A DNA stretch of 64,000 bases from Clostridiales bacterium (GTDB lineage: Bacteria > Bacillota > Clostridia > Saccharofermentanales > Saccharofermentanaceae). Positions 5,928 through 59,196 of the stretch are shown here, piece by piece (position 1 is the stretch's first letter; the number at the start of each line of letters is the position of its first letter). A model generated the notes under the pieces. That model saw only the letters and a list, made by a program, of their open reading frames with translations, did not search any database and was not told the DNA's origin. The stretch lies in assembly GCA_017513085.1 (NCBI GenBank), contig JAFWDK010000003.1:48573-112572 (forward strand). Reading direction: 5' to 3'. Position numbers and translations under genes: made by a program.

Positions 5928-5974
5928 GTTATCATTAGCTAACTTGCGATCGCTAACAGTTAGCTTTTGCTAAC
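5928..5974. promoter_or_regulatory. Three tandem GTTAGC-N4-GCTAAC-type boxes upstream of ECF operon
   Basis: GTTATCATTAGCTAAC 5928-5943, ACTTGCGATCGCTAAC 5942-5957, GTTAGCTTTTGCTAAC 5959-5974 (exact). Confidence 0.8.
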
Positions 5975-6062
5975 CAATAATAAAATATAAGTAGAGAAAA
6001 ATCCAGTAGTAATTGAACACTTTTTTAGATTTGTTCAGTAAAATCGTCATATTTCACGAAAA

Positions 6063-7799
6063 TCATGTTCCGGATTGCAGTGTTACCATACGTGCATACA
6101 TACCGTTTTCCGAAAGTAATTCATCATGACTTCCCCGCTCTATGATATTTCCATCAGATACGACCAGTATCTGATCCGCATCTTTAATCGTCTTCAGGCG
6201 ATGCGCAATGACCAGAAGCGTCTTATTCCGGCACAGTTCCGATATTGCTTCCTGAATCGCCCTTTCATTGTCAGCATCTACACTGGCCGTTGCCTCATCC
6301 AGAATAACGATCGGTGCATCTTTTAATATACATCTGGCGATAGAGATACGCTGCTTCTCACCACCGGAAAGAGACGCTCCGCCCTCTCCGATCACAGTAT
6401 CAAAGCCATCCGGAAGTGCCATGATGAAATCGTAGCAGCGTGCTTTTCGGGCAGCTTCGTAAACTTCCTCTTTCGAAGCATCCGGGCGGGCCATCGCAAT
6501 ATTGTTATAGATCGTATCCTGGAAGAGATACACACGCTGGAATACCATACTGATGTGATCCATCAGATCTCCCATCGGCACCTTCCTGATATCTTTCCCG
6601 TTCACCATGATCCTTCCTTCTCCGATATCCCAGAACCGTGCAAGAAGCGAAGCGATCGTTGATTTGCCTCCTCCGGACGGGCCGACCAGAGCGCACATTT
6701 CGCCGTTTTTTACCTTGAAGGAGACATGCTTAAGTACATCTTTCTCAGTATATCCGAAAGTGACATCATCATATTCGATTGCCGCCACACTTCCATTTTC
6801 CGCGGATGCCTCCGAGAGCGTCTCTTTTCCGGTATCCGGCATTTCTTTTTCCGCAAAAAGCGCTTCGATGCGGTCCAGACTGGCAGAAGTAACTGTGAGA
6901 CGTGCCATCTGGGAATAATAACTTTTGACCGCACTGAAAAGGTCAAAGAGAAATAGTGCCATGCCGACCATATACACATTCGAGATCATTCCATTATGAA
7001 AAAGATAAGCACATGCAATAAGCACAAGCGAAGTACCGATTCCATATGTAAGATGCAGAGCTCTTGACCAGGGAGTGTAATCCACTTCAAATGCGATGCT
7101 CTCCTGACAGTTTTTCTCAAACTCATCCGTTAGTTTCTTTGAGTTTTCTCCCAGAAGATTATAGGTCTTAATGATTCCCATTCCTTCTGCAAAATCCAGC
7201 ACTTCGTTGGTCAATGATTCGCTATACTCCTGCTTCTTGCGGGAATGCTCCATAGTATGACGGAGCATAAGATTTCCGACTACAAAGAAAACCAGCACGA
7301 CAAGCAGAGACAAAAGCCCCAGCCGTATGTCCATATAGAACATCATGAGGATCATCAGCGCCTGGGAAATAATGAAGGAGACCAATTCCGAAAGGACACC
7401 CATGCAGTTTTCTTCTATAAAGACCATATCGGTGGATAAGATCGAACTGATCTTACCTATATTTCCTTCGGTGAAATACCCCATCGGTAGTTTTCTCAGA
7501 TGGTCACCCAAACGGATACGCATATCCGCAAATACTTTATACCCGGCCGATGACTGAAGGATATTCGTCAGATGTTCGAATCCTGCCTGAAGGAGCACAC
7601 TTGCAGCAAGAACGATACCGAAGATCAGGCAGGTCTTCTTATCCATGGTTCCTTCCATAAAATACTTGATCATCAGGAAACTCAGCATCAGCGGCATTTT
7701 CATCAGGCACCCTTTGAAAAAGGATGTTATATAGGATGCCCGGATCGATTTTTTATACTTTCCCGTCATACGGATCAGTCGATGCATGATCTTGATCAT
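6063..7799 (-). CDS. ABC transporter fused permease/ATPase, IrtB/YbtQ-like
   Basis: TMD plus NBD (GPSGGGKS, LSGGEKQR, LDEATASVD); ATG 7799 overlaps partner stop (ATGA). Confidence 0.88.
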   Translation of the reverse strand: MIKIMHRLIRMTGKYKKSIRASYITSFFKGCLMKMPLMLSFLMIKYFMEGTMDKKTCLIFGIVLAASVLLQAGFEHLTNILQSSAGYKVFADMRIRLGDHLRKLPMGYFTEGNIGKISSILSTDMVFIEENCMGVLSELVSFIISQALMILMMFYMDIRLGLLSLLVVLVFFVVGNLMLRHTMEHSRKKQEYSESLTNEVLDFAEGMGIIKTYNLLGENSKKLTDEFEKNCQESIAFEVDYTPWSRALHLTYGIGTSLVLIACAYLFHNGMISNVYMVGMALFLFDLFSAVKSYYSQMARLTVTSASLDRIEALFAEKEMPDTGKETLSEASAENGSVAAIEYDDVTFGYTEKDVLKHVSFKVKNGEMCALVGPSGGGKSTIASLLARFWDIGEGRIMVNGKDIRKVPMGDLMDHISMVFQRVYLFQDTIYNNIAMARPDASKEEVYEAARKARCYDFIMALPDGFDTVIGEGGASLSGGEKQRISIARCILKDAPIVILDEATASVDADNERAIQEAISELCRNKTLLVIAHRLKTIKDADQILVVSDGNIIERGSHDELLSENGMYARMVTLQSGT

Positions 7800-9538: not shown

Positions 9539-9559
9539 AAGCTCGTCCTTTCCAAAAAG

Positions 9560-9599
9560 ATAATCCACATAGTTAGCATTTGCTAACTATGTGGATTAT
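9560..9599. promoter_or_regulatory. Box GTTAGCATTTGCTAAC (9572-9587) at the centre of a perfect 19-bp-arm inverted repeat
   Basis: ATAATCCACATAGTTAGCA-TT-TGCTAACTATGTGGATTAT; followed on the minus strand by CTTTTT. Confidence 0.85.
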
Positions 9600-9626
9600 A
9601 CTCGTTTCACTATCCGATTCCACCAT

Positions 9627-12355: not shown

Positions 12356-12357
12356 TA

Positions 12358-14121: not shown

Positions 14122-14143
14122 ATTAAATCACTCCTTTTTTCTA

Positions 14144-14159
14144 GTTAGCTATCGCTAAC
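14144..14159. promoter_or_regulatory. Box GTTAGCTATCGCTAAC upstream of ABC pair
   Basis: Exact match to the recurring palindrome. Confidence 0.85.
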
Positions 14160-14182
14160 CGTCAAACGATAACTTATACAAT

Positions 14183-14203
14183 AAAAAAGAGCCTTGCGGC
14201 TCT
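14183..14203 (-). terminator. Intrinsic terminator after TetR gene
   Basis: AGAGCC-GCAA-GGCTCT stem followed by a T run on the minus strand. Confidence 0.6.
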
Positions 14204-14206
14204 CTT

Positions 14207-14824: not shown

Positions 14825-14918
14825 GAACAACAGACTTCCTTTCATTGTGATCATCGTTAGCTATCATTGATAACCTACATAATCATGCACCATAAAAGGA
14901 AGTCTGTCAAGTTCATGA

Positions 14919-15665: not shown

Positions 15666-15694
15666 GATTCATCTCTCCTTTATATATGATTCTA

Positions 15695-15949: not shown

Positions 15950-15959
15950 ATTGACTCCT

Positions 15960-18052: not shown

Positions 18053-18072
18053 TCATTCATCCCCCTTGCATC

Positions 18073-18088
18073 GTTAGCATATGCTAAC
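18073..18088. promoter_or_regulatory. Box GTTAGCATATGCTAAC upstream of feoA
   Basis: Perfect 16-bp palindrome. Confidence 0.9.
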
Positions 18089-18148: not shown

Positions 18149-18180
18149 GTTAGTATATGCTAACCGTTGTGCAAATGCAA
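18149..18180 (-). promoter_or_regulatory. feoAB promoter (TTGCAT-17-TATACT) overlapped by second box GTTAGTATATGCTAAC (18149-18164)
   Basis: -35 at 18180-18175, -10 at 18157-18152; box has one mismatch. Confidence 0.7.
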
Positions 18181-26005: not shown

Positions 26006-26021
26006 GTTAGCATATGTTTAC
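26006..26021. promoter_or_regulatory. Degenerate box GTTAGCATATGTTTAC upstream of AraC gene
   Basis: Two mismatches to consensus, intergenic. Confidence 0.6.
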
Positions 26022-26587: not shown

Positions 26588-26603
26588 GTTAGCATAAGCT
26601 AAC
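26588..26603. promoter_or_regulatory. Box GTTAGCATAAGCTAAC between divergent genes
   Basis: Exact match; extended -10 TGCTATAAT at 26610-26618 on + strand. Confidence 0.85.
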
Positions 26604-34184: not shown

Positions 34185-34200
34185 GTTAGCGTACGCTAAC
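34185..34200. promoter_or_regulatory. Box GTTAGCGTACGCTAAC upstream of ABC pair
   Basis: Perfect 16-bp palindrome. Confidence 0.88.
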
Positions 34201-34974: not shown

Positions 34975-35023
34975 TTGACGGATTTGGATGAACCCGATAA
35001 GATTGTAGTTAGCATACACTAAC
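34975..35023 (+). promoter_or_regulatory. xylA promoter (TTGACG-17-TAAGAT) followed by box GTTAGCATACACTAAC (35008-35023)
   Basis: -35 34975-34980, -10 34998-35003; box has one mismatch and spans the predicted +1. Confidence 0.75.
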
Positions 35024-36392: not shown

Positions 36393-36444
36393 CAAAAGAA
36401 CTCCTCGATGGTATAAAGAAATGAGTTAGCATATGCTAACTCAT
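36389..36444 (+). promoter_or_regulatory. Orphan promoter (TTGACA-17-TATAAA, extended TG) followed by perfect box within 24-bp palindrome
   Basis: -35 36389-36394, -10 36412-36417, ATGAGTTAGCATATGCTAACTCAT 36421-36444. Confidence 0.8.
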
Positions 36445-36618: not shown

Positions 36619-38063
<1,445 letters not shown>

Positions 38064-38173: not shown

Positions 38174-39172
38174 TCATTCGAACTCAGAGATGGAAACATG
38201 CTCTCCTTTCCGGATCCTGTTCCGAAGGGTCATCAGTTCATGATCCTTTTTCTCTGCCAGGAGCAGAACGGCCGCTTCCTGATCATCCCGATGGATGATC
38301 TTATCAATACGGCCATTTCTGATCACGATACGTTTCGGAGACATCAGGGAAAGAATCGGGTCATGGGTCGCGATCAAGACGATCTTATCATTACCTGTCA
38401 GAAGCTCCATCGCCTTTCTTCGATCGATACCTGCATTTTCGATCTCATCGATCAAAACGATCGGCGCACGTGAGAGGTAGGCACAGTCTGCAATCATCAG
38501 CGCACGTGACTGTCCTCCGCTTAAGGCTGTCACCGCGGTATCCCGGGAAAAAGGCTCACCAGCCAGGGAAACAGCTACCTCATACACTTTCTGCACTTTC
38601 CCGGGGATCTCTTCCTTTCTGAGGAAACACTCGGCATGCATGGTAAGAAATTCTTCCACATTCATATCCAGGACGAAATTCATATTCTGCGAAAGCTGAG
38701 CGATCGAACGTCTTCTTTCGCCTGTTTTGAGCCATTCTTCCTTATTTTTTCCGTCAATCAGTATCGTTCTCTGTGTCGGAGTGTCCTTTAGTGCCTGCCA
38801 CTCGATATCTTCCAGGAGGCGGCTCTTTCCGGAGCCGGTTTCACCGACAATGGCGATCATTTCACCTTTTCGGATAGTTATAGGATCGAAGCACTCACTC
38901 GCACCATCTTTCCCAACTCCCGGAATGATCGTGATGGATCCGACACTTCGGATCTCCTCGGAGAGACATTCCGACGCACTTCGGAGATAGGCAGAAAATT
39001 CCTCTTCCACTTCGTTTCGGCTCATCTTTCTCTGCTCGAAAAATGAATCCGGAAGCTCCATCAGGTTTTCAGAAAAGCTCTTTTCCTTATCCCAGATCAC
39101 CTCAAAGTCATCCAGATAGTATGGCAGATAGGGGTAGTCCTTCTCCAGTTGCAAAAGCGGGATCGTCAGCAT
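38174..39172 (-). CDS. Stand-alone ABC-type ATPase with N-terminal extension
   Basis: GETGSGKS, LSGGQSR, LIDEIE, ATHD; no cognate permease of its own. Confidence 0.8.
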   Translation of the reverse strand: MLTIPLLQLEKDYPYLPYYLDDFEVIWDKEKSFSENLMELPDSFFEQRKMSRNEVEEEFSAYLRSASECLSEEIRSVGSITIIPGVGKDGASECFDPITIRKGEMIAIVGETGSGKSRLLEDIEWQALKDTPTQRTILIDGKNKEEWLKTGERRRSIAQLSQNMNFVLDMNVEEFLTMHAECFLRKEEIPGKVQKVYEVAVSLAGEPFSRDTAVTALSGGQSRALMIADCAYLSRAPIVLIDEIENAGIDRRKAMELLTGNDKIVLIATHDPILSLMSPKRIVIRNGRIDKIIHRDDQEAAVLLLAEKKDHELMTLRNRIRKGEHVSISEFE

Positions 39173-39188
39173 TCATGTACCTTCTTTC

Positions 39189-39872
39189 TCAGATCTTGAT
39201 GTGTTTAACGTTTCCGATCTGGTACTCGGTTCCTATCTTTGTTTCACCTAAACAATAGGAACAGAGCGCCATAGGCATCGGAAAACGAAGCGTCTCATTT
39301 TCGATTTCTCTCTCCATAGCCATATTCCGGATCGCCCGTGTGATCTCTGAAATTCCCTGTCCGGTAAGCCCGTTGACAGGAAATATCAGTGCTTTTGGAT
39401 TAGAGGTCTCAACTCTTCGCATGAACACTTCTCTTTCTGCTTGAGAAACGATATCTCCTTTTGTAATAAGTACAATATCTGCCAGTTTCAGGAGAGGACC
39501 GATTTTTCTGGGAGCCCGGATCCCGCTTAACTGATCGATCACACAGACAGCCAGCACATTTTTGATGTAGGGCGAGCATCGGTTACAAAGGCCGGCACTC
39601 TCCGTAAAAAGATAGTCCAGCTCTTCCTTTTTCCCCCAATCATAGACAGTCTGAATATTCGTGATGTAATAGTGATCGGGACAAAGTTCGGAAGAAAGTC
39701 CCTTTGCCGATGGGATCCCGGCCTGACTATAGGTCTTGTCGTCTTCGGTCTGGAGGCAGTCAAACTTACACGCCCCCACTTTACTTCCATCTCTCATAAT
39801 TTCTTTTAAGATCCGCGTCATAACGGTAGTTTTGCCCGTTGCAGGCGGTCCGGCAAAGGTTACCAGCTTCAT
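39189..39872 (-). CDS. HypB/UreG-like (G3E) Cys-rich GTPase
   Basis: GPPATGKT, KFDC, LCPDH, ESAGLCNRC, ITKGD, C-terminal CSYC. Confidence 0.8.
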   Translation of the reverse strand: MKLVTFAGPPATGKTTVMTRILKEIMRDGSKVGACKFDCLQTEDDKTYSQAGIPSAKGLSSELCPDHYYITNIQTVYDWGKKEELDYLFTESAGLCNRCSPYIKNVLAVCVIDQLSGIRAPRKIGPLLKLADIVLITKGDIVSQAEREVFMRRVETSNPKALIFPVNGLTGQGISEITRAIRNMAMEREIENETLRFPMPMALCSYCLGETKIGTEYQIGNVKHIKI

Positions 39873-40798
39873 TACTTTTCCTCCGTCATGATCTTCTTAC
39901 ATCTTTGGATTATTTCCGGAAGGGAGGGATCATAGAGATACTCCCAGCCGACAAAGCGAAGACTTCCGGGAAGAGCATTGACAACACCTGTAATGTTACT
40001 CGGGAAGAATCCCTTCTCTCGGAAGATCCTGCCGGCCTCCTCGCGGCAGAGGATGGACATGAGCCTTTCCGCCTCGGGATTTGATTTTGAAGTTACAACA
40101 AGTGGCAGGATCGGTGCACCATCGCTGAACCAGATGAGTTTCATTCCCTTCTGACGGGCTTTGATCTCCCCGAAGATCCAAGGCATCAGGTAGATATATG
40201 GTTTTTCGCCTTCGATTCCACCCGGCTTGATCATCTGTGAGGGATGCACGATCGCACAGATATTCTTTCTTAATCGTCTGATTCCCTCGTCTCCCGCAAC
40301 TTGATGAATATATGTCAGAATGATCCCGTCAAACATGTGGCCGTCATCCGGAAATGCAATACTGTTTTCAAACTCACCCGAAAGCAGGTCAGAAAAAGCC
40401 TTCGGTTCACTTCTTCCCTTCGACTGATCGGTATCCACGACCATGACCAGAGGAATGCACGAATAGATATCAAACATTCCTTTCGGATCAGAAAAGGAAG
40501 CAAACGCCGGATTCCCGAGAAGTGTTTCTCCTGATGCATGAAATCCTTTTTCTTTTATGACAGGATGATTGACGAGACCTTCGATACCTGTCCCCATGAA
40601 AACATCCGGATCACACTCTTTAAAGATCTTATCGACCCAGGATAAACCGAACTCCGCTAATGCGATGTTATATTCTTTCCGGTCAGAGATATACTCATCC
40701 AGATAATCCTGAAAAGGAAGCTGCACCACACATGGAACACGTCCGACCAGTTTCGCTTCTTTATTCTCTGCTGTGTAATGAAGTTCTTCTTCTCTCAC
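39872..40798 (-). CDS. Substrate-binding-fold protein lacking a signal peptide
   Basis: GRVPC, PLVMVVD, PKAFSDLL, HPSQM, WFSDGAP; GTG 40798 after GGAGG, start uncertain. Confidence 0.6.
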   Translation of the reverse strand: MREEELHYTAENKEAKLVGRVPCVVQLPFQDYLDEYISDRKEYNIALAEFGLSWVDKIFKECDPDVFMGTGIEGLVNHPVIKEKGFHASGETLLGNPAFASFSDPKGMFDIYSCIPLVMVVDTDQSKGRSEPKAFSDLLSGEFENSIAFPDDGHMFDGIILTYIHQVAGDEGIRRLRKNICAIVHPSQMIKPGGIEGEKPYIYLMPWIFGEIKARQKGMKLIWFSDGAPILPLVVTSKSNPEAERLMSILCREEAGRIFREKGFFPSNITGVVNALPGSLRFVGWEYLYDPSLPEIIQRCKKIMTEEK

Positions 40799-41636
40799 GA
40801 AATCGATTCCTCCCTTCGACAACTGTCACCTGTTCGCTTATGTCCCGACTGAGTACATCAATGGGTAGTACACATACATGTCTTTTCTCTTCGATCATAA
40901 AATCACGGATCCGCACATCAACATCAAAAGCCCTGCAAAGATTTTCTTCGGAAATCACTTCGTTTGCATTTCCGAATGAATTGCTTCCATCACGATTCAG
41001 GATCAGGGCTTTATCGGATATAGCCAGCGCGTGCTCCGGATAGTGAGTATTTACAATGGATGAGATGCCCCGTTCTCTGCACAGCTTATGGATCGTATTG
41101 ATGACGATCAGCTGGTTTTTAAAGTCGAGATTCGACTCCGGTTCATCCAGTATCAGAAGTTCAGGATCTGTAGCTAATGCTCTGGCAATAAGGACCATCT
41201 GCAGTTCACCACCGGAGATCTCATTACACAGCTTCCCGCGAAGCCGGCTCATCCCGACCATATCCAGACATTCTTCCGCAAAGCGGTAGTCTTTCTTCGT
41301 CGGCTGCGCCAGTATTCCCAGGTGGGCATTTCGTCCGAGAAGAACCATCTCTTCTGTGGTATAGGAGAATGCGGAGCGCTTTGCCTGCGGCACATATCCT
41401 ATCTTCTTCCAGATCTCCTGGTTCTTCCATTCGTGCCATGGTTTACCATTGATATATGTACTGCCGGCACGCCATGGAAGGAAGCCGAGCGTGCATTTCA
41501 GCAGAGTCGTCTTGCCGACACCATTTGATCCCAGGATCGAAAGGATCTCTCCCTCTTTGACAGAGAAAGAAAGGTTTTTAAGGATGTCAGGTCCTTTCTT
41601 ATATCCGAATGATGCATCTTTCACCTCAAAGATCAT
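40761..41636 (-). CDS. Iron-chelate/cobalamin-type ABC ATPase (FecE/BtuD-like)
   Basis: GSNGVGKT, IGYVPQ, VLLGR, ISGGELQ, LDEPESNLD. Confidence 0.88.
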   Translation of the reverse strand: MIFEVKDASFGYKKGPDILKNLSFSVKEGEILSILGSNGVGKTTLLKCTLGFLPWRAGSTYINGKPWHEWKNQEIWKKIGYVPQAKRSAFSYTTEEMVLLGRNAHLGILAQPTKKDYRFAEECLDMVGMSRLRGKLCNEISGGELQMVLIARALATDPELLILDEPESNLDFKNQLIVINTIHKLCRERGISSIVNTHYPEHALAISDKALILNRDGSNSFGNANEVISEENLCRAFDVDVRIRDFMIEEKRHVCVLPIDVLSRDISEQVTVVEGRNRFRERRRTSLHSRE

Positions 41637-42631
41637 GTTTTTACACCTCCTGTCCGACGAAGCAGAATAATAAATACCGGGGCGCCGATAATCGCAGTAA
41701 GGATTGAGATCGGCAGTTCCGCAGCGGTTGCAGATCTCGCAACTGTATCAATAAGCAGAAGGTACGTCGCTCCCAGTCCGATGCTGGCCGGAATAACATA
41801 TTTATTATTGTTTCCGAACATCATACGGGAGATATGCGGGATCAAAATACCGATCCATCCGACCTTTCCGCACATGGCGATGACAGATCCGGTAATCATG
41901 GTAGAGGATACGATCGTAAGTCCCCTCATCAGTTTCAGGTTGATTCCCATTGCCCTTGCCTCATCATCGTTTAATGAAAGAACATTCAGTTTCCATCTAA
42001 GACAGAAGAGAATGATGATACCGATAAGCATCGGGATCGTTCCGATCCACAGTTTTTGGAAACTGGTTCCGGATAAACTGCCCATAAGCCAGTATGTGAT
42101 TTCCGGAAGTACATCCTGCGGATCCGCTACATACTTTATAAGAGAAACCAGAGCTTCAAAAAGTGAGCTGATCACCATACCGGATAGGATCAGCATGACA
42201 AGCGAAGACTCACCTTTCACACGGCTGATCATGTACACCAGCCATACGGATAAGAGACCCATAGCAAAAGCCGTTCCCTGAATTCCAAGAGATGGAAGCC
42301 GCAGCATAATTCCGAGCGTCGCCCCAAAAGAAGCGCCCGTGGCGACTCCTAAAGTATCAGGAGTCGCCAGGGGGTTGGAAAACATACTCTGAAAGGCTGC
42401 ACCGGCAACGGCCAGACCCGCGCCTGCGATAATCGCCAGGATCGATCTGGGAAGACGGATCTTATACAGTACCGTCTTCACATTCGGATCATCGACCTTC
42501 ATGCCCAGGAGGACTTTTACGCAGTCTTTGATGGGGATCGAGTACCGGCCCACACCTAACGCGATCAGAAAAGATGCGACAAGTGCAATAGTAATGCCGA
42601 TCACCCAGATTAATTCTGTTTTCTTTTTCAC
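41633..42631 (-). CDS. Iron-chelate ABC permease (FecCD/BtuC family)
   Basis: IRLPR, FSNPLATPDTLGV..GA, WLMGSL, GWIGILIPH, IIGAP. Confidence 0.9.
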   Translation of the reverse strand: MKKKTELIWVIGITIALVASFLIALGVGRYSIPIKDCVKVLLGMKVDDPNVKTVLYKIRLPRSILAIIAGAGLAVAGAAFQSMFSNPLATPDTLGVATGASFGATLGIMLRLPSLGIQGTAFAMGLLSVWLVYMISRVKGESSLVMLILSGMVISSLFEALVSLIKYVADPQDVLPEITYWLMGSLSGTSFQKLWIGTIPMLIGIIILFCLRWKLNVLSLNDDEARAMGINLKLMRGLTIVSSTMITGSVIAMCGKVGWIGILIPHISRMMFGNNNKYVIPASIGLGATYLLLIDTVARSATAAELPISILTAIIGAPVFIILLRRTGGVKT

Positions 42632-42652
42632 GTGTTCACCTTTGTCCCCGGA

Positions 42653-43909
42653 TCAGAGGCCTCTTGCCGCATCACGTGACGGAATGAACATCATATCCAG
42701 CTGCTCGTCAGAAAGATCATATCCGCACATTTCCTTATAGTATTCCTTTGCGATCTTACGGATATCCGTATCCTTGAAAAGATCCGGATAGATCACAGAA
42801 GCCATCCACTGCATAGTAACCGGAGAATCTCCACCCGGTGTATAGCTTCTATAAAGACCAAGAGGCATCTTATAGACACGCTTGTTCTTTACTGCATTGA
42901 TCGTGCTCCAATCATCTGTACCGATAGCATTGTTATAGAGATCTTCCGGCTGTGTGCCGCAGAAATTGGTGATAATGATAATATCCGGATTCCATTCATA
43001 TACCTGTTCCATCGATATCTTCAGGATAGAACCATCCGGCACTTCGCTGGCAACATTGTATGCATTTACGGACTCACACCACCACTGGCCGAAGAAGTTC
43101 ACACCGGAGGCCACCATCGCCGCATCTGTGTACTTGAAGAGAACCAGGACGCGTGCCTTCTGATCATCCGGAATGTCCTTTGTTTTTTCGATGATATCCG
43201 CATGGACAGCATCACTCTTCTCCATAGCCTTCTTTGCAAAATCCGAACCGCCGAAGATTTGGTCGAGAAGGTCGATCCAATGTTCATAGGTCTCGATAAT
43301 GTCATACTTCCAGGCAGAAGCAGATGTAGTAACTGCCGGGATGCCGGCTTCACGGATCGCTTTTGCCTGTTCCTGTCCGACACCAATGACAATATCCGGC
43401 TTAAGGATCAGGAGTTCCTCCAGATTTACCTCATCACCACTGATAAAAGCTGTATTTGCGTTTAAGATCTCCGGGTAGATCTGTCCAAGAAGGCCGTTTT
43501 CCGCAGCACTCATAGATACCGGATGGATACCCACGATCTTTTCCGCAGAACCAAGATACTCTGCAATAACAGATGCCAGCGGATAGAAAGACCCTACTGC
43601 AATTCGATTGATCGTATTAGGAACCTCAACGGTATCTCCGGCATGGTCGACAACAGTATGTGTGCCATTGGGATCACCAAACGGGTTCTCGGAATCTTTG
43701 CTTTCTCCTTTGACCTCTGTGCTGGTCTCGGAAGACTCCTCCGAAGAACTTTCGGAAACACTCTCCGACGTCTCCGCACTGGTCTCCTCGATCGTTTGCG
43801 TATCAGAAGTCGACGAAGCGCTCGTTTCCTCATCTTTCTTTGCACAGGCCGACAGGGCGCAAAGTGCAATAGCTACCGACATTAAGCCGGCAAGAAGTTT
43901 TTTCTTCAT
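42653..43909 (-). CDS. Iron-chelate/B12-type substrate-binding lipoprotein
   Basis: Lipobox LSAC, Ser/Glu/Thr linker, NLEELLILKPD, ISMEQVYEWNPD, AVKNKRVY. Confidence 0.88.
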   Translation of the reverse strand: MKKKLLAGLMSVAIALCALSACAKKDEETSASSTSDTQTIEETSAETSESVSESSSEESSETSTEVKGESKDSENPFGDPNGTHTVVDHAGDTVEVPNTINRIAVGSFYPLASVIAEYLGSAEKIVGIHPVSMSAAENGLLGQIYPEILNANTAFISGDEVNLEELLILKPDIVIGVGQEQAKAIREAGIPAVTTSASAWKYDIIETYEHWIDLLDQIFGGSDFAKKAMEKSDAVHADIIEKTKDIPDDQKARVLVLFKYTDAAMVASGVNFFGQWWCESVNAYNVASEVPDGSILKISMEQVYEWNPDIIIITNFCGTQPEDLYNNAIGTDDWSTINAVKNKRVYKMPLGLYRSYTPGGDSPVTMQWMASVIYPDLFKDTDIRKIAKEYYKEMCGYDLSDEQLDMMFIPSRDAARGL

Positions 43910-43985
43910 AATAATCCTCTTTCTACTTACTTTAGTAAGAACTATGTATATTTTTAAGCCGGTCGTTTAAAAGCGCCGAACGGGC

Positions 43986-45125
43986 TTACAGATCATGTTC
44001 AAGCCATTTATTTTCATCCAGGTAATTCCAGTAACTGTTTTTCCCTACACGGCTTGAGACGGAGTACTGCGGAAAAGGTATCTGATCTTTTACCCCTCCC
44101 GAAAACTCTATAAATAACGGGTCCGCGATCAGAAGATCCTTCTGATCCTTCACTACGGAAAGGATCGTATCTTCATCACTTAGATAAGTGGATACATCAT
44201 CTTCATGTTCGATCGTATATAGCTTGCAGTCTATATTCTCTGACCGCAGGAAGTTTCGTATCGAGTCCCCGATCACCGAGTCAGCAATAATGACTCCGGA
44301 TCGTCGGGAAGTCTTAGGACTAAGCACCTTAAACACAGCGGTCTTCCCTTCGCGGACCAGTTCAAGATACGAACTCATCTGTTTCTGTCCTATCGGGAAA
44401 TTCACGATATAAGGTGTCTGATACTTTTTTTCCATAGCTTTGGCGATCGCAAGTCCCGCCTGGTTCCAAACCAGGTTCAAAGTGACTTTCTCCGGATACT
44501 GGTAAAACAAAAGAGAGCCGTACATGCCCTGTTCCTGCATCAGACAGATACCATTCTCCGTAAGTCTGCCGCAAAGGCTGTCATACACTTCCTGATGCAT
44601 ATCCAGCGGGGAGATGCCCGGAATAGCTACTGTTCCTCCATCTTTCCAGGGTTCGCGCTTCTCCGGGTTTTTCTCGTAATAGTCTGTGAGTGCAAAGTAA
44701 GCCATAAGAATACCGTCATAGTAAGAACCTTTAATTCCCGCGGTCGGAAATCCGAAACAAGGGATACCGGTTCTATTCTCGACCGCTCTGGCGACTCCGT
44801 TAAAATCAAAACCGATGACATTCGGCACCGGACTTCCGACAATAGCTATAAACTTCGGATGTCGTTCCAAAGCATTCTTTGTGATCTTACCGATCAGTTT
44901 CTCATCGTCACCGAGGATAGCATCCACCTTTCGAAGGCTTGTGCAATACACCATAGAATGACTGCCGTACCATCTCGGCTCATCGAAATGGGTATAATTT
45001 CCCGTGCAGCCTGCCGCATCATGAATGCAGATCATACCGCCGAGATCAAAAAGCGCGGAGCATACCCCTGAATAATCTCCTGCAAAAGGAGGAAGATACA
45101 TACAAACTTTATGTTTTTTATTCAT
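43986..45125 (-). CDS. Nitrogenase component-1-like protein (second subunit, NifK/N-like)
   Basis: PPFAGDYSG, HDAAGC, DAILG, VGSPVP.VIG.D oxidoreductase-nitrogenase pattern; 379 aa. Confidence 0.78.
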   Translation of the reverse strand: MNKKHKVCMYLPPFAGDYSGVCSALFDLGGMICIHDAAGCTGNYTHFDEPRWYGSHSMVYCTSLRKVDAILGDDEKLIGKITKNALERHPKFIAIVGSPVPNVIGFDFNGVARAVENRTGIPCFGFPTAGIKGSYYDGILMAYFALTDYYEKNPEKREPWKDGGTVAIPGISPLDMHQEVYDSLCGRLTENGICLMQEQGMYGSLLFYQYPEKVTLNLVWNQAGLAIAKAMEKKYQTPYIVNFPIGQKQMSSYLELVREGKTAVFKVLSPKTSRRSGVIIADSVIGDSIRNFLRSENIDCKLYTIEHEDDVSTYLSDEDTILSVVKDQKDLLIADPLFIEFSGGVKDQIPFPQYSVSSRVGKNSYWNYLDENKWLEHDL

Positions 45126-46372
45126 CAGACGATTCCTCCGTATTCATCGATCAGTTTTCGGATATCCGCTTTTTCTTTCATCGCGAACCGCATAGTATCC
45201 ATAAGGATCCTTATTCCCTGATATCCGAGCATTCCTTCATCAGAAGAGATATCTGCAACATATCGCGCATTGCTTAAGTAGGCAGCTTCTTCGCCTACTG
45301 CCAAAGCTATTGTTTCCGTTTCCGAACGGAAAACCGAATCCGGATGATCCCCCTGAATGATCTCGACCTGCGGATACTCGTTAAGGAGGATATCGGCATA
45401 CTTCTGATCGGGTCCCACCACTTCAGAAAGATAGACACGCGTTACACGGAAACCGTATTCCAGAAGTGCTACGGCCAGAGATAGGGGAAATACGGTTGCA
45501 CTGTCAGAAACAAAGACCGGCACATCCGCAACTTCTTCTCTGGCATAATAGATCGCCTGTTCACATAAGGAACGGTCGTCTTTAATCTTTTCAGAAAGAT
45601 CTTCTCCCAAAAAGTCAGACAGATCCTGATACTCTTTAGTGACAGTATCAATATCATAGGATATCGGCATTTCCACGTGTGTAGCGCCGGTTCTTTTCTC
45701 CAGACGTCTCAGCGCATATCTCACAAATGGTTTTATCACTATAGATCTTCCGGAGCGGGACATCTCCTCATACTCTGAAAAAGTACTGCACGAGGAAATC
45801 TGGCGGACCATATGGCCATTTTGATTCAGGACCCGGATCAGCTCGTTATCTTCCGGGATCCCGACGAAGTTTCCCCAGAGCGTTACACCATCATCCGTCT
45901 TCTCCCAATCGGGTAGCACACTTAACATCGCATCAAACGTCGTGACTGCCGGTGGCATCTTGGTGGAAGATGCAATTGGATTCATATGTCCGGCACGGAA
46001 AAGGATATCCGGATATCTTTTCCCGAGGATCGCGGTCACTTTCTCCATATCCGTACCGATAAAATCATCCAGGCAGGAAACATAAATAAAGAGAAGACGG
46101 ATGTCCTTTTCCGTTCTTTCCAGAAGCTCATCCACGCCATCCAGGATCTCCTGATCGTATCCCTCCACGATGTCGCTCTGGTCAATATAAAGATAAGAAA
46201 TACGGTCTTTATAGTGATGCTGGATCGCGCCGAGCGCCCCATGCCGGAAGCACGCTGACGGGCAGACAAACAAAAGATAAGATCCGGGGATAAGTGCAGC
46301 GACACGGATGATTCCCCATCCGTCATGCGCAGGATTGCAGTAACAAAGGTTCGGTTCAAATCGCATGTTCAT
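45125..46372 (-). CDS. Nitrogenase component-1-like protein (first subunit, NifD/E-like)
   Basis: PAHDGWG, VCPSACFRH, DIVEG, VSCLDDFIGTD, GYQG; TGATG coupling at both ends. Confidence 0.78.
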   Translation of the reverse strand: MNMRFEPNLCYCNPAHDGWGIIRVAALIPGSYLLFVCPSACFRHGALGAIQHHYKDRISYLYIDQSDIVEGYDQEILDGVDELLERTEKDIRLLFIYVSCLDDFIGTDMEKVTAILGKRYPDILFRAGHMNPIASSTKMPPAVTTFDAMLSVLPDWEKTDDGVTLWGNFVGIPEDNELIRVLNQNGHMVRQISSCSTFSEYEEMSRSGRSIVIKPFVRYALRRLEKRTGATHVEMPISYDIDTVTKEYQDLSDFLGEDLSEKIKDDRSLCEQAIYYAREEVADVPVFVSDSATVFPLSLAVALLEYGFRVTRVYLSEVVGPDQKYADILLNEYPQVEIIQGDHPDSVFRSETETIALAVGEEAAYLSNARYVADISSDEGMLGYQGIRILMDTMRFAMKEKADIRKLIDEYGGIV

Positions 46373-47184
46373 CACCTCCGAAGCAGATAAATCAATTCTT
46401 CGGTATACGGATCTTTTTGTATGGACGTATCATCGCCATGGCAGAGACTGATTATTCTATCTGCCAATTTTTCATAATCCTTAGCGATCGACGATCGGGG
46501 AAACTTCTCGATAACAGTCTTTCCCTCCTGTTCCGCCGCCTGCACCATCTTACTTCTATGGATATGTGAAATAACCGGAAGGTCGTGTTCTCTGGCAAAG
46601 CGGGTAACAAGATCCTTTTCATTCTCAACAAGCCGCTCATTTAAAATCAGGCCACGTACACGGGCGTATCCGCGCTCTTTGAAATTGTCTACGGCACGGG
46701 AAATATTATCTGCGGCAAAAAGAGCCATCATCTCACCGGAAGTAACGATAAAGACATGTTCCGCATATCCGTCACGGATCGGCATGGCAAAACCGCCACA
46801 GACTACATCGCCGAGAACATCATATAGAACGATATCCGGGGCGTATTTTTCAAAAGCACCGAGCTCTTCCAGTTTCTGGAGAGCCGATATGATACCAAGA
46901 CCAGCACATCCGATACCGGGCGTCGGTCCACCCGATTCTACACAGAGGACACCGTTATATCCATCGTGAACGAGATCAGAAAGCTCGACGTCTTCACCCT
47001 TCTCCTTGATCATTCCGAGGACCGTGCTGATCTTCTCGCCCCCCATCAGGTTTTTAGTAGAGTCCGCTTTCGGATCGCAACCGATCTGCATGACTTTATA
47101 ACTGCGTGAAAGAGCGGCTGCAAGATTCGACGTTGTGGTTGATTTGCCTATTCCGCCTTTACCATAAATAGCTATCTTTAACAA
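46372..47184 (-). CDS. NifH-like Fe protein (nitrogenase-like reductase component)
   Basis: [50 protein letters not shown]; TTG start. Confidence 0.93.
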
Positions 47185-47238: not shown

Positions 47239-47254
47239 GTTAGCCACTGCTAAC
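47239..47254. promoter_or_regulatory. Box GTTAGCCACTGCTAAC between nifH-like operon and Crp/Fnr gene
   Basis: Exact match; minus-strand -10 TATACT at 47266-47261, plus-strand TATAAT at 47222-47227. Confidence 0.85.
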
Positions 47255-47288: not shown

Positions 47289-47302
47289 GTTGCCTGTGCA
47301 AC
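47289..47302. promoter_or_regulatory. Candidate Crp/Fnr-family site GTTGC-N4-GCAAC
   Basis: 5-4-5 palindrome centred at -41.5 from the predicted nifH-like +1. Confidence 0.55.
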
Positions 47303-47313
47303 ATCTCAAAAAA

Positions 47314-47979
47314 ATGTTAAAAAACGAAATACACGCATTACAATCAGATCTATTTCGAGGATTCAACCCGGACGAAATCGATAGCATCCTGTCTCGGACC
47401 TGCTCATGCAGGAGAAAATTTACGAAGAATGTCGATATTTTTTCTCCCGGGGAGGTCATATGCCACACCGGCATGATCCTGTCCGGGAATATCGATGTTC
47501 AGTTTTCCGGATTTTCCGGCAAAGAGGAACTAGTCGTCCGGGAATCCCCCGGTGAACTGATCGGTCAGGCGTTTTCTCTCACAAAAACAGAAAACTCTTT
47601 TATACACTTCCGTTCTGTCGGAGATACTGAGATCCTCTTCATGAATCTTGATCTGCTCTTCTCTAAACCCGAGATCGATCCGGTCCTCGGGAAGCTCTCT
47701 GTCAATCTCATGAGGATCCTGGCCAGCACGAATATTCAGCTTAATAAGAAGATCTGCCTGCTTACGCAAAAATCACTCCGCGATAAACTTCTCCTCTTTT
47801 TTGAAGAAGGCGCTACAGAGGGGCCGGAAGGAAAAACCTGCCGTTTAACTCTGACTCGGGAGGAACTGGCTTCCTATATCAGTGCGGAAAGATCTTCTGT
47901 CTGCCGGGAACTCGGACGGATGCAGGACGATGGCTGTATCCGCTTAGTAGGTAAAAAAGTGATCCTTGCCACCGGCTAA
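47314..47979 (+). CDS. Crp/Fnr-family transcriptional regulator
   Basis: cNMP-like domain (ILSG..PGELIG) and HTH LTREELASYISAERSSVCREL; start 47290 (TTG) or 47314. Confidence 0.88.
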   Translation: MLKNEIHALQSDLFRGFNPDEIDSILSRTCSCRRKFTKNVDIFSPGEVICHTGMILSGNIDVQFSGFSGKEELVVRESPGELIGQAFSLTKTENSFIHFRSVGDTEILFMNLDLLFSKPEIDPVLGKLSVNLMRILASTNIQLNKKICLLTQKSLRDKLLLFFEEGATEGPEGKTCRLTLTREELASYISAERSSVCRELGRMQDDGCIRLVGKKVILATG

Positions 47980-49493: not shown

Positions 49494-49509
49494 GTTAGCG
49501 TATGCTAAC
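49494..49509. promoter_or_regulatory. Box GTTAGCGTATGCTAAC upstream of methyltransferase pair
   Basis: Exact match. Confidence 0.85.
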
Positions 49510-52476: not shown

Positions 52477-52492
52477 GTTAGCATCCGCTAAC
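52477..52492. promoter_or_regulatory. Box GTTAGCATCCGCTAAC upstream of FtsX-type ABC operon
   Basis: Exact match. Confidence 0.85.
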
Positions 52493-55640: not shown

Positions 55641-57410
55641 TCAGGCAAGTTTCCAGTTTCCTGCTGACTGTTGCTCTTTCCAAAGTGCAGCATATCTTCC
55701 GTTTTTCAGAAGAAGTTCTTCATGATTTCCTTCTTCGATGATCCTACCGTCATCGAGAACGAGGATATCGTCGGCATTCATGACGGACTGCAGACGGTGG
55801 GCAATGACCAGGACTGTTTTATTCTTCACAAGCTCATCGATGGCTTTCTGAATAAGCACTTCATTTTCCGGATCAAGACTTGCTGTCGCTTCATCCAGAA
55901 ATACGATAGGCGCATCGGAAAGGATCGCTCTTGCAATCGATATCCGCTGCTTCTCTCCTCCCGAAAGAGTGGAACCGCCTTCACCGACCATCGTGTCATA
56001 GCCGTCCGGAAGCGAAAGGATAAAGTCGTGGCAGGCAGCGGCTCTGGCCGCGGAATAGATCTCCTCATCCGTCGCATCCGGTTTACCGATGCGGATATTC
56101 TCCGCGATCGTATCCTTGAACAGATAGACATCCTGAAAAACCATGCTGATCTTCGACAGCAGATGTTCCTGTGTCATGGCATTTACAGGAACCCCGCCAA
56201 TACTGATTCTTCCTTGAGAAATATCCCAGAATCGCGCAAGAAGCCTTGCGACCGTTGTTTTTCCGGAACCGGAAGATCCGACCAGCGCGACGAAATTTCT
56301 CTCCGGAATTTCGAAACTGATTCCTTTGATCACGTCATTTTTCCCATCGTACGAAAAGTGTACATTCTGAAAGGAGATGTCACTGCGGTCTGTGGTTCTT
56401 GCCGGCTCTTCCACGCTTAATTCTTTTTCCTCTTTCAGCCGGATCAGCTTATCTACACACTGATTCATTCTTGCCATACTGATCACAAAGACAAACAGCT
56501 GCATGATCGGCTCATATACCTGAAGTGCCGCCAGAAGCGACATAATGTAGAAGAACGGTGAGATTTCTCCGGATGACAGAAGATATGCACCGGTGCCCAT
56601 GACGATACTGATCCCCAGAAACAATATCGCCCTGCCATACATGGATACGGCACCTCCGGCCTTTTCCTGTTTTTTCGAATCATCCCGAAGTTTGGCAAAG
56701 CTTTTTTGCAATCCTTCAAAAGCACTGCCAGCCCGGTCATAGGCCTGAAGTGTGGTGATACCGCCTGCATATTCGATCACATTCGCAGCTGTCTTCTGAC
56801 GGATGGCGATCAGTTCCGAACTTGTATGTGCGATCCTTTTATAGCTGATCACGGCAAAGGGGATCGCAAGAGGAATGACAACAAACATCGCAAGCGTCAT
56901 TTTCACACTGAATATACTGAGTACGATCAGGGCGATAAGAAGTCTCATCAGGATCACGGCGGCATTGGCCACAACGCTGGAGGACAGGTTTTCGATTTCT
57001 TCGTAATTGGCCATCAAAAGGGTGGAAAGTTCACCGGCATCGTGGTCAGCGAAAAATCCCATCGGAAGTCTTCGAAGCTTATCCCCCAGGCGTAGTTTCT
57101 CCCGCTGCTGAAGGGATACATGCCCAACACAGATATCGAGATAGGATTTTCTTCTCACGATTGCATAGATGATCGTCTGCGCCAGAAGGATTCCGACAAG
57201 GATCCAGAACGGTCTCTGCTCGAATGCTTTTGCCGTATCTAATACCGGAGCAAGAAACATATACACGGCAACCATAAGTATGCTGGAAGGGATCGAGGCC
57301 ACAAAGCTGTCCAGGAAAAGCCATGCGATGAATTTCCCATACCGCTTCTTATCCCCGTAAGTGATTATATTCCACCATTTTGAGAAGTGTTCGCGCTTAG
57401 TCATTTTCAT
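55641..57410 (-). CDS. ABC transporter fused permease/ATPase, IrtB/YbtQ-like
   Basis: LGDKLRRLPMGFF, GSSGSGKT, LDEATASLDPENE. Confidence 0.88.
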   Translation of the reverse strand: MKMTKREHFSKWWNIITYGDKKRYGKFIAWLFLDSFVASIPSSILMVAVYMFLAPVLDTAKAFEQRPFWILVGILLAQTIIYAIVRRKSYLDICVGHVSLQQREKLRLGDKLRRLPMGFFADHDAGELSTLLMANYEEIENLSSSVVANAAVILMRLLIALIVLSIFSVKMTLAMFVVIPLAIPFAVISYKRIAHTSSELIAIRQKTAANVIEYAGGITTLQAYDRAGSAFEGLQKSFAKLRDDSKKQEKAGGAVSMYGRAILFLGISIVMGTGAYLLSSGEISPFFYIMSLLAALQVYEPIMQLFVFVISMARMNQCVDKLIRLKEEKELSVEEPARTTDRSDISFQNVHFSYDGKNDVIKGISFEIPERNFVALVGSSGSGKTTVARLLARFWDISQGRISIGGVPVNAMTQEHLLSKISMVFQDVYLFKDTIAENIRIGKPDATDEEIYSAARAAACHDFILSLPDGYDTMVGEGGSTLSGGEKQRISIARAILSDAPIVFLDEATASLDPENEVLIQKAIDELVKNKTVLVIAHRLQSVMNADDILVLDDGRIIEEGNHEELLLKNGRYAALWKEQQSAGNWKLA

Positions 57411-59196
57411 TCCTCCTCATGATCCATCTGTCGCGATGATCGTTGGCATCGACCATATTCCTGTAGAGTTCACATCGCTGCATAAGTTCATCATGTTTTC
57501 CGATGTCTTCCAGTTTTCCCCCGTTCATTACAAGGATATTATCCGCATTCTGAATGGTTTTCAGTCTGTGGGCGATCATGATGACGGTCTTTCCTTCCGA
57601 AAGCTTAGAGAATGCCTTCTGTATCTTCGCTTCATTTTCTGCATCGGCATAGGCGGTCGCTTCATCGAGAACTACTATCGGTGCATCCTTAAGGATCGCC
57701 CTTGCAATGGCAATGCGCTGTTTTTCACCTCCGGAAAGGCCGGTGCTGTCTGATACGACTGTCTTATACCCGTTAGGAAGGGATTCGATCATCTCGTCGA
57801 TATTGGCAGCTTGTGCGGCTGCTTTTACCTCTTCGAAAGTAGCCTTTTCATTCCCCATGCGGATGTTGTTCTCGATCGTATCGTTAAACAGAAACGAATC
57901 CTGAAACACATACGCGATATTCTTCACCAGATGAGAGTGGGTCACTTCTTTTATATCGACTCCTCCGATCCGGACCGATCCGCTTCCGATCTCATAGAAA
58001 TGAAGAAGCAGTTGCGCGATCGTACTCTTTCCTCCTCCTGATGGACCGACCAGCGCATTGCAGCTTCCCTGAGGGAGATGAAAACTGACATCATTACAGG
58101 CCTTCAGCTCATTTCCGGGATACGAGAAAACTACATGGTCGAATTCGATATCGAATGCCGGGAATGTTTTTCCTTCTCCATTAAGAACGATCTCCGGCTC
58201 ATAAAGCATCTCATCGATCCTCTTCATGCCAACGTTGATCTTCATGCTGTCGATGGATACGTTCATCATGTTCTCGAGAGGTTCTTTTAGGCCTGCACAT
58301 ACAATAAGGAAAAAGAGCACCTTGGGAAGGACTTCCGCATAGTTTCCTGCACCATTCATCATCAGGATCGCCGCGGGAAGCAGGAAAAGCACCTGCGCTC
58401 CGAAAAAGGCATAATACAGTCCCATTCCGTTCGCGTTGTAATAAGCCGTGTCATGGACGGCTTTCGTAAAGGAATTCAGATCTGTCTCATACCGTTTAAA
58501 AGCATTTCCCGTACCACCGAATATCTTGATGACATTCATGCCGTGGATATATTCGACGATCGTTCCCTCCATTTTCGTCTTACTGTCTGCCATACCTTTC
58601 TGAAACGCAGCTCCTTCAGGCTTACGCAGCGCCATCGCCAGTATGATGAATGAACAGATGATCGGAATCAGCGAGACAAGTGTCAGACGCCAGTCCGTAA
58701 TAAATAGCACGATGATCGTAAAAAGCGGTGTTGCGATGGCTGCGGCCACTTCACACATACTGTGGGCAATAAAGACTTCGATCTGTTCGACATCCTCAAT
58801 AAGTAGTTTCTTGATACTGCCCTGCGTATTGGAAGTGTAATACCCCGAGGAGATCCTCCCCATCTTCTCCATCAGTTTCATACGAAGCGCATAGAGAATA
58901 TCGAATGCGGCACCATGGGAAAGCATGGCCGAAGCATACGCACATATGCCATATAGTACTGCACTTGCGGCGGTAATATACACCAGGATCTGCACGGAGC
59001 CGAAGGTAAATCCGGTACCGGTATTATAGGCGCGGATCATTTTCTGCAGTATGGAATAGATCGTAAAAAACGGCACGATCTTAAAAAGACTCAATAAGAC
59101 CGAAAGGGTGCAGGCAGCAGCGAGTTTTCCGCGGTTAGCAGATGCTAACTCGAAGAGACGAGCGATTCCTTCCTTCTTTTTCTGTGATTTATTCAT
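57397..59196 (-). CDS. ABC transporter fused permease/ATPase, IrtA/YbtP-like
   Basis: IEVFIAH, VEYIHGMNVIKIF, LDEATAYADAENE; GGAGG RBS before ATG 59196. Confidence 0.88.
   Translation of the reverse strand: MNKSQKKKEGIARLFELASANRGKLAAACTLSVLLSLFKIVPFFTIYSILQKMIRAYNTGTGFTFGSVQILVYITAASAVLYGICAYASAMLSHGAAFDILYALRMKLMEKMGRISSGYYTSNTQGSIKKLLIEDVEQIEVFIAHSMCEVAAAIATPLFTIIVLFITDWRLTLVSLIPIICSFIILAMALRKPEGAAFQKGMADSKTKMEGTIVEYIHGMNVIKIFGGTGNAFKRYETDLNSFTKAVHDTAYYNANGMGLYYAFFGAQVLFLLPAAILMMNGAGNYAEVLPKVLFFLIVCAGLKEPLENMMNVSIDSMKINVGMKRIDEMLYEPEIVLNGEGKTFPAFDIEFDHVVFSYPGNELKACNDVSFHLPQGSCNALVGPSGGGKSTIAQLLLHFYEIGSGSVRIGGVDIKEVTHSHLVKNIAYVFQDSFLFNDTIENNIRMGNEKATFEEVKAAAQAANIDEMIESLPNGYKTVVSDSTGLSGGEKQRIAIARAILKDAPIVVLDEATAYADAENEAKIQKAFSKLSEGKTVIMIAHRLKTIQNADNILVMNGGKLEDIGKHDELMQRCELYRNMVDANDHRDRWIMRRNEND
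59134..59149. promoter_or_regulatory. Intragenic box GTTAGCAGATGCTAAC
   Basis: Exact match about 50 nt inside the ABC gene (encodes part of ELASAN). Confidence 0.65.

Follow-up and report, generated by a model that had tools for sequence, protein, structure and literature searches.

A sharp palindrome on some 14 promoters of a rumen Clostridia bacterium is very probably a repressor operator, with a DtxR-type metal sensor as its tentative reader

In a 64,000-nucleotide stretch of the genome of a rumen Clostridia bacterium (assembly GCA_017513085.1, contig JAFWDK010000003.1, positions 48,573 to 112,572; hereafter, the window), about 14 promoters within 53 kb carry a 16-base palindrome, GTTAGC-N4-GCTAAC, with the conserved core GTTAG-N6-CTAAC, which we call M1. 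We conclude that M1 is very probably the promoter-occluding operator of one regulon. As its reader we tentatively favor a DtxR-type repressor encoded outside the window, with a Crp/Fnr-family regulator encoded beside one of the M1 sites acting instead on a second, look-alike palindrome, GTTGC-N4-GCAAC (M2). Nearly all genes of the window lie on the minus strand, and the closest genome record is that of Mageeibacillus sp. UBA3781 (97% identity for one protein).

Results

To assess how far M1 departs from chance, we counted its copies in the window. All 12 exact copies named in an earlier reading of this DNA (the original prediction) were found at their positions (Table 1), against 0 expected and none in 100 dinucleotide-preserving shuffles of the window, which bears out the estimate of less than one chance copy per 64 kb. 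When up to two mismatches were allowed, 16 sites were found versus 0.99 expected, with a shuffle maximum of 3, and the mismatch spread was very sharp (12 perfect sites, three with one mismatch, and one with two). At zero to three mismatches there were 21 matches versus 13.3 expected; the five with exactly three mismatches are at chance level. Four of the five near copies claimed earlier therefore stand (5928, 18149, and 35008 with one mismatch; 26006 with two), but the fifth, at 5942, has three mismatches and only its right half intact; it belongs to the chance-level class and therefore counts only by its place between two good sites. Fifteen of the 16 sites are wholly intergenic, although intergenic DNA makes up 5.4% of the window on our gene map (binomial P = 1.3e-18), in agreement with the claim that all copies but one lie between genes. 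The exception, 59134, falls ~45 nt inside an ATP-binding cassette (ABC) transporter gene with a likely ATG near 59195. The flanks of the copies are unrelated to one another, and M1 is therefore not a dispersed or mobile repeat.

We then analyzed the position of M1 relative to promoters; transcription start sites here are inferred rather than mapped. A generic promoter and terminator scan of positions 5000-24999 gave no enrichment (32 promoter-like sites versus 30.2 expected), and the offset from M1 to the -10 element was therefore measured directly, using a strict rule that demands T at position 6 of the -10 hexamer. A -10-like hexamer starting 8-10 nt past M1 was present on 6 of 32 oriented flanks, versus 0.36 expected, namely at 9572, 26006, 26588, and 49494 and on both sides of 47239. 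On all six flanks the TTAGCn of the left half-site occupies the -35 position, and at 47239, where the hexamers lie 8 nt away on the plus side and 10 nt away on the minus side, one palindrome is common to two back-to-back promoters. A second arrangement was seen at 36425 and 38011, where TTGACA-17-TATAAA ends 7-8 nt before M1 (these TATAAA promoters were missed by the strict rule and read by eye), and at 35008, where the gap between the end of TTGACG-17-TAAGAT and M1 is 4 nt; at 18073 and 14144, M1 lies between a -10-like box and the ribosome-binding site. The promoter overlap noticed originally is thus confirmed for the -35/spacer region or the start site of sigma-70-like promoters, and, with starts predicted from the sequence, both arrangements are repressor positions.

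Conservation was followed at orthologous promoters and in 75 loci (L numbers below) returned by a genome scan with the Crp/Fnr protein of the window; L001-L022 hold that protein's own clade (group A, 34-97% identity), and the remaining 53 loci amount to 840 kb. At the methyltransferase, MacB-like ABC, and enolase promoters, the M1 half-sites show no change in as many as seven related genomes per promoter, and the central N4 differs in almost every genome. Among the conserving genomes are those of L008 and L010, with Crp proteins that share 50% and 47% identity with that of the window, and L010 retains the enolase promoter with M1 on its start site. Even the intragenic copy at 59134 is kept at the DNA level in L006, despite changed amino acids. 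Fixed half-sites, a drifting N4, and promoter overlap together are the anatomy of a dimeric-repressor operator, and the proposal of a repressor operator is therefore strengthened by M1's overlap with core promoters and its conservation at orthologous promoters in other species. As a separate observation, at sites 47239, 49494, and 38011 and their orthologues in L001-L006, N4 varies although the flanks are nearly identical; the center of M1 seems to be either the only unconstrained stretch or unusually mutable.

Target genes were named with Pfam, and NCBIfam curated models scored above their cut-offs for feoB, gpmA, xylA, eno, and the MptD S component; FeoA and the 84-residue HMA protein of the feo operon were identified by Pfam. 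The M1-headed units include four heterodimeric exporter-fold ABC pairs, three MacB-like ABC systems, an energy-coupling factor (ECF) transporter operon with three tandem sites, the feo operon with two sites, a membrane protein with a divergent hydrolase, xylA, enolase, two methyltransferases, and a nitrogenase-like operon. The metal-related character of the targets, pointed out in the original prediction, is supported by feoA-feoB-HMA-gpmA, the MptD-type ECF system, a FecCD/Peripla_BP_2 importer, and a CobW/HypB-like GTPase.

To ask which protein family could read M1, we compared it with known operators. The accessible text of Marcos-Torres et al. 2021 (PMC8464063) gives TTAGGTTAGSCTAACCTAA as the consensus for IdeR/DtxR. 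It contains CCTAA four times, and a single dimer touches the first and third of these repeats; half of the site is enough to bind one dimer with similar affinity, and other bases are tolerated at position 1 of the repeat. So described, repeats 1 and 3 read TTAGG-N4-SCTAA, compared to TTAGC-N4-GCTAA for the M1 core, with the same spacing and 8 of 10 bases in agreement. In Lachnospiraceae copies, M1 positions 6 (C/T) and 11 (G/A/T) vary, and these correspond to the tolerant position 1 of the published repeat. The resemblance of GTTAG/CTAAC to DtxR/MntR sites, suggested originally, is thereby matched to the one-dimer IdeR geometry as given in that text, and the reservation that M1's spacing differs from that of the classical box falls away. 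The view that M1 is not a Fur box holds as well, with four Fur-like matches (three mismatches) versus 5.85 expected, none of them at M1 promoters. The one-dimer match, the repressor positions, and the metal targets together make a sensor of the DtxR/IdeR/MntR type the best candidate.

The original prediction had also found no cognate regulator in the window. This is probable at best: no DtxR, Fur, or MntR family member occurs among the scanned open reading frames (ORFs), but a Crp/Fnr gene, divergent from the nitrogenase-like operon and with M1 between the two, 35 nt upstream of the Crp start, had been missed, and its product is a live though less likely candidate. We aligned 21 Crp homologues. 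The M1 core is present upstream of the Crp orthologue in 21 of the 22 group-A loci (in L021 it is one mismatch off), mostly at a distance of 32-39 nt from the conserved N-terminus; across the clade the recognition helix hardly varies; and in all eight distant loci annotated, the Crp gene is divergent from this same nitrogenase-like operon, with a changing outer flank. The remaining 53 loci contain eight M1 core matches, three of them in L029, L041, and L057.

M2, whose extended form is TGTTGC-N4-GCAACA, overlaps the Crp start in 19 of the 22 loci and is one mismatch off in two of the other three. It is conserved as bases rather than as residues, with TTG, C.., ..G, CAA, and C.. retained in codons whose residues vary, and its center keeps a constant distance of 49-52 bp from that of M1. 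The form cTGTTGC-N4-GCAACA recurs upstream of HcpR-like genes among L023-L070, and 28 of the 51 more distant homologues have it nearby. Twelve of these loci were annotated, and five of them lie beside hcp (Prismane) and two near haemerythrin/DUF438 genes; these homologues are HcpR-type regulators. In a quick tree, from which L021, L022, L067, and L073 were left out, the group-A Crp clade was fully supported and sister to the hcp-linked clade. The regulators of L029, L041, and L057 form a separate clade nearer the hcp-linked group and have an HcpR-type helix; in these loci M2 and then M1-like sites precede both a Peripla_BP_2/FecCD/ABC operon and the regulator gene, and in L029 a one-mismatch M1 lies 18 nt before a ZIP transporter. 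An HcpR-type helix clade thus also has M1-like sites, and we therefore take M1 to follow function, not the helix, and M2 to follow the protein family.

Residues of the helix point the same way. As far as the accessible part of Rodionov et al. 2005 (PMC1274295) describes it, the HcpR2 branch has the motif GTAAC-N4-GTTAC, Ser181 variants (Clostridium thermocellum, Clostridium difficile) go with a changed motif, and G at the third (outer) position of the motif correlates with Arg180. Arg180-Ser181 is also what the window protein carries (ERSSVCR), and in the register of that description M2 has G and M1 has T at this position. Taken together with the loci above, the sequence makes it considerably more likely that the window Crp reads M2 than M1. 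An M2-reading Crp would be a local regulator of the nitrogenase-like operon, bound ~80 bp upstream of its promoter and on its own 5' end. According to the available portion of one report, the HcpR of Porphyromonas gingivalis binds haem (PMC12750200), and by analogy we would guess at a haem- or tetrapyrrole-sensing role for the window protein.

The nitrogenase-like operon is the conserved core target of this locus. For its NifD-like subunit, comparison with the PDB gave no relative better than E = 7e-4, and NCBIfam gave weak matches to BchN; the NifH-like subunit falls below the CfbC and NifH cut-offs of NCBIfam, yet is a typical Fe protein by PDB comparison. The operon is very divergent, and its candidate groups are IV-D/E and VI. 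Coupling to a Peripla_BP_2/FecCD importer was seen in eight of the eight distant loci annotated. We found no literature tying nitrogenase-like enzymes to haem or iron in Butyrivibrio.

Three of the loci carry a different arrangement. In L029 (5858-13774), L041 (4614-12549), and L057 (353-5176), a 1280-residue BcrAD_BadFG/DUF2229 "CoA enzyme activase" accompanies the importer, and a related Crp-like gene with M2 and M1-like sites lies between the activase and the Peripla_BP_2/FecCD/ABC importer. Judged by its domains, a different ATP-driven reductase holds the place of the nitrogenase-like enzyme there.

Turning to the other regulatory genes, four TetR and two AraC genes lie in or beside M1-headed units. 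The four TetRs were considered as a common M1 reader and rejected; they are 21-36% identical and their recognition helices differ, and they are therefore local regulators. Small window proteins of unknown function were likewise considered as hidden regulators and rejected, being membrane or secreted proteins or without a family.

Several neighboring features deserve mention. The GpmA encoded in the feo operon is the cofactor-dependent, metal-independent phosphoglycerate mutase, so that a metal-sparing isozyme seems to be part of this transcription unit. The Zn uptake operon (small membrane protein, ZnuA, ZnuC, ZnuB, and lipoprotein) lacks M1 and has another box, as originally noted: at 21830-21898 (minus), a promoter matching 12 of 12 consensus positions is directly followed by a 7-1-7 palindrome, TGCGAAT-G-ATTCGCA, which by its sequence is a Fur-family (Zur-like) box distinct from M1. 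The 9572 site is the tip of a 40-nt perfect hairpin (9560-9599, minus; 18-bp stem) followed by CTTTTT; this hairpin lies between an AraC gene and the next ABC pair, and 9572 is the only M1 copy resembling a terminator or attenuator.

At 36390-36510 (+), a perfect TTGACA-17-TATAAA is followed by M1 and then by a strong hairpin, AATTCCCTCCC...GGGAGGGAATT. By alignment this segment is a paralogue of the promoter and leader of enolase, with folds of z = -5.8 and -4.3. No recognizable ORF stands behind the 36425 promoter, which points into the 3' end of enolase, and the copy is possibly a repressor-controlled small or antisense RNA. At the far end of the window (59897-63673), a carbonic anhydrase gene and a 138-residue orphan lie between two AAA_14/DUF4143 ATPase genes, and the GC content is 0.41 in the last 4 kb versus 0.45-0.48 elsewhere.

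Table 1. M1 sites, M2, and the associated genes in the window
Feature	Position	Strand	Context
ECF operon	2286-5906	minus	MptD-family S component, CbiQ-type T component, double ATPase
M1, 1 mismatch	5928..5943		First in a tandem of three sites that precedes the ECF transporter operon
Half-site, 3 mismatches, right half intact	5942..5957		Between two M1 sites; chance level if taken alone
M1, exact	5959..5974		Upstream of the ECF operon
M1, exact	9572..9587		ATG (9538) of an ABC exporter-type pair follows after 33 nt
M1, exact	14144..14159		22 nt before ABC pair 12358-14121/10619-12376 (with AraC, 9627-10619); after the TetR1 terminator
M1, exact	18073..18088		20 nt before feoA; operon feoA-feoB-HMA protein-gpmA at 14919-18052 (minus)
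M1, 1 mismatch	18149..18164		76 bp upstream of the feoA-proximal site
M1, 2 mismatches	26006..26021		8 nt, then TACAAT; before AraC2 and MacB-like ABC, 21923-25963 (minus)
Membrane protein	26052-26552		On the minus side of the 26588 site
M1, exact	26588..26603		Divergent region; on the plus side 9 nt, then TGcTATAAT and a BAAT_C hydrolase
M1, exact	34185..34200		After the TetR2 terminator; 69 nt before ABC pair 32355-34115/30614-32416
MacB-like ABC			Downstream of ABC pair 32355-34115/30614-32416
M1, 1 mismatch	35008..35023		4 nt after the end of TTGACG-17-TAAGAT; xylA, 35064-36392 (+), downstream
M1, exact	36425..36440	+	7 nt after TTGACA-17-TATAAA; heads the ORF-less copy of the enolase leader
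M1, exact	38011..38026	-	8 nt after TTGACA-17-TATAAA; on the start site of the eno promoter (eno, 36619-~37905)
Nitrogenase-like operon	38174..47184	minus	Products: NifH-like, two NifD/K-like, Peripla_BP_2, FecCD, ABC ATPase, SBP_bac_6, CobW/HypB-like GTPase, ABC ATPase
M1, exact	47239..47254		Between the nitrogenase-like operon (47184 down to 38174) and the Crp/Fnr gene
M2	47289..47302		GTTGC-N4-GCAAC covering the TTG start codon of the Crp/Fnr gene; no other 5-4-5 copy in the window
Crp/Fnr-family regulator	47290..47979	+	HTH_Crp_2 and cNMP_binding; recognition helix ERSSVCRELGRMQ; HcpR2-like
M1, exact	49494..49509		On the minus strand 9 nt, then TGaTACAAT; before two S-adenosylmethionine (SAM) methyltransferase genes, 48018-49444
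M1, exact	52477..52492		After TetR3; 39 nt before MacB-like ABC, 49514-52437
M1, exact	59134..59149		Inside an ABC gene (~codons 16-21), just after TetR4

Discussion

The explanation that we favor, although we hold it at somewhat short of even confidence, is that M1 is read by a DtxR-type repressor encoded outside the window and that the Crp neighbor acts on M2. M1 would then be the operator of a single dimeric helix-turn-helix repressor, which when bound would block RNA polymerase. At about one third of the targets, the left half-site TTAGCn would double as the -35 element, elsewhere M1 would sit on the transcription start, and strong targets would have two or three M1 sites. The repressor would be a metal-loaded (Fe2+ or Mn2+) sensor of the DtxR/IdeR/MntR kind, binding as a single dimer. 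Its regulon would be a metal-acquisition and metal-sparing set made up of the feo operon, the ECF system, the nitrogenase-like operon with its haem- or corrinoid-type importer and its metallochaperone-like GTPase, the ABC systems, enolase, xylA, and possibly a small RNA. Beneath it, the exporter-fold and MacB-like ABC systems would each have a local TetR, AraC, or Crp regulator of their own, and the HcpR2-like window Crp, bound to M2, would regulate the nitrogenase-like operon and itself, giving a two-tier circuit like that of Fur plus local activators.

Several results count against this explanation. No gene of the DtxR, Fur, or MntR family was found by Pfam among 65 window ORFs or 156 locus ORFs. 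The classical 19-bp two-dimer DtxR box is absent, as none of the 12 exact sites has a second repeat pair offset by 5 bp, and with 12 of 16 sites perfect, M1 shows a sharpness that Fur or DtxR regulons do not usually reach. An iron or manganese regulon would not be expected to contain xylA and enolase. The presence of the M1 core beside the Crp gene in nearly every group-A locus would also fit Crp as the reader, as would L010, where the Crp and enolase genes are divergently oriented and two M1 sites, but no M2, are present; moreover, in about 10 Lachnospiraceae loci, M1 occurs almost only at the crp/nitrogenase-like gene pair. Finally, the Arg180 rule, which helps to assign Crp to M2, is a correlation from one comparative paper, as presented in its accessible part (PMC1274295).

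These last points bear on the rival that the window Crp/Fnr protein itself reads M1, as the nitrogenase-like operon's local regulator turned, in this lineage, into the repressor of a large transporter regulon. We had first favored Crp as the cognate regulator, until M2 and the L029, L041, and L057 loci demoted it, and we now regard it as unlikely. M2 would in that case be the site of an HcpR-type paralogue or a second, weaker site of the same Crp. The persistence of the core upstream of Crp down to 34% identity, the gene pair kept in every distant locus annotated, the nearly invariant helix of a fully supported clade, and the steady M1-M2 spacing are all what such a reader would predict; the 14-bp core TTAGC-N4-GCTAA has Crp/Fnr geometry, and a gene of the family is adjacent in 22 of 22 loci. 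However, M2, the box common to HcpR-like relatives, is conserved at this gene too, and M1-like sites also accompany the HcpR-helix clade. No group-A homologue was found in the three genomes of that clade in one scan, which is weak evidence, since these are metagenome-assembled genomes. Arg180, by the published correlation as far as the accessible text gives it, predicts G where M1 has T. M1 is centered at about -29 or on the inferred start, not at an activator position (-41.5/-61.5). We know of no Crp-family repressor of a metal regulon.

An improbable alternative, to our judgment, is a trans-encoded repressor of another family, either a PrfA-like Crp/Fnr protein without Arg180 or an undescribed one, that may respond to another signal such as haem or tetrapyrrole, redox state, carbon state, or envelope stress. 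It would explain the operator anatomy equally, and it draws on the nature of the targets, most of which are exporter-type ABC systems with TetR or AraC genes and, in addition, xylA, enolase, and methyltransferases, none of them classical members of a metal regulon. Also in its favor, the PrfA box and the M1 core are one base apart in each half-site, and our limited text searches returned no printed description of M1, their DtxR matches being classical boxes. Against it, feoAB-HMA-gpmA, the ZIP transporter of L029, the FecCD importers, and the CobW/HypB-like GTPase point to metals, and so does the agreement in spacing and in 8 of 10 bases with the one-dimer IdeR site of the published consensus, as far as that description extends.

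That M1 acts in RNA, as a 6-bp stem with a tetraloop (stabilizer, processing site, or terminator), or as a repetitive extragenic palindrome-like structural repeat is very unlikely: the copies at 36425, 38011, 35008, 14144, and 18073 would be transcribed at an mRNA 5' end, the 9572 copy has its long stem and CTTTTT, and the predicted folds are stable, but a T-run follows only 1 of the 16 copies (9572), at least five promoters have M1 upstream of the -10 element, where it would not be transcribed, variation is confined to the loop, the stem having no compensatory changes, as in protein-DNA half-sites, Rfam gave 0 matches in the window at gathering thresholds, and the unrelated flanks exclude a mobile repeat.

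Returning to a DtxR-type reader of M1 with Crp on M2, a further step, which we offer as a speculation with the chances well against it, concerns the core locus. M1 and M2 might form a two-tier starvation circuit around a nitrogenase-like reductase and a haem- or corrinoid-type importer, the enzyme being a tetrapyrrole or chelate reductase that salvages iron. With ample metal, the core would be shut off through M1, and the HcpR-like, possibly haem-binding Crp would turn it on through M2 when substrate is present; the nitrogenase-like clade, and the BcrAD/DUF2229 activase that replaces it in three loci, would be ATP-driven and anaerobic. According to the accessible part of a 2026 Chem Rev review (PMC13474568), the fact that most nitrogenase-like groups are without known function is the field's main open problem. 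If our suggestion is true, one such orphan group would gain a testable function, and M1 in any case ties an orphan nitrogenase-like enzyme family to metal-uptake genes. Beyond this family, M1 provides a sharp, testable regulon for uncultured rumen Clostridia and shows that one box can act as the -35 element of back-to-back promoters. It also had to be told apart from M2, a look-alike that a motif scan would easily merge with it, and this distinction changes which protein fits which site.

Compared with known systems, M1 is close to the operators of DtxR/IdeR and MntR/SirR/TroR, with which it has in common the pentamer xCTAA/TTAGx and the 4-bp one-dimer gap, to the extent that the sources on these operators were available to us. 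DtxR-type operators likewise lie on promoters of metal uptake genes. In contrast to the DtxR/IdeR boxes of Actinobacteria, M1 occurs in a rumen Clostridia bacterium, is without the second repeat pair, and has sites that are nearly all perfect. As for the HcpR2 branch, the window Crp shares the family fold (Pfam and PDB profile search) and, in the published numbering as far as it was accessible, Arg180-Ser181, and its relatives stand beside hcp with M2 in 5 of 12 distant loci annotated; unlike HcpR2, however, the window clade stands beside a nitrogenase-like operon rather than hcp (eight of eight loci), no Prismane gene occurs in the window, and the helix reads ERSSVCR, not NRSALSR.

The PrfA box and the CprK dehalobox are also 14-bp 5-N4-5 palindromes beginning with TTA, a layout like that of M1, but PrfA and CprK activate from about -41.5, whereas M1 is placed near -29 or at the start itself. 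Fur regulons offer the broader parallel, with a global repressor box on many uptake promoters and local AraC, TetR, or Crp regulators, as here, and RyhB and FsrA are repressor-controlled small RNAs that parallel the candidate RNA at 36425. Unlike in Fur regulons, no 7-1-7 AT-rich box was found at M1 promoters, the sole 7-1-7 palindrome seen being the Zur-like one at the Zn operon. The particular box did not turn up in our limited text searches. The kind of system is a known one, in which local regulators act below a global repressor whose box lies on uptake promoters.

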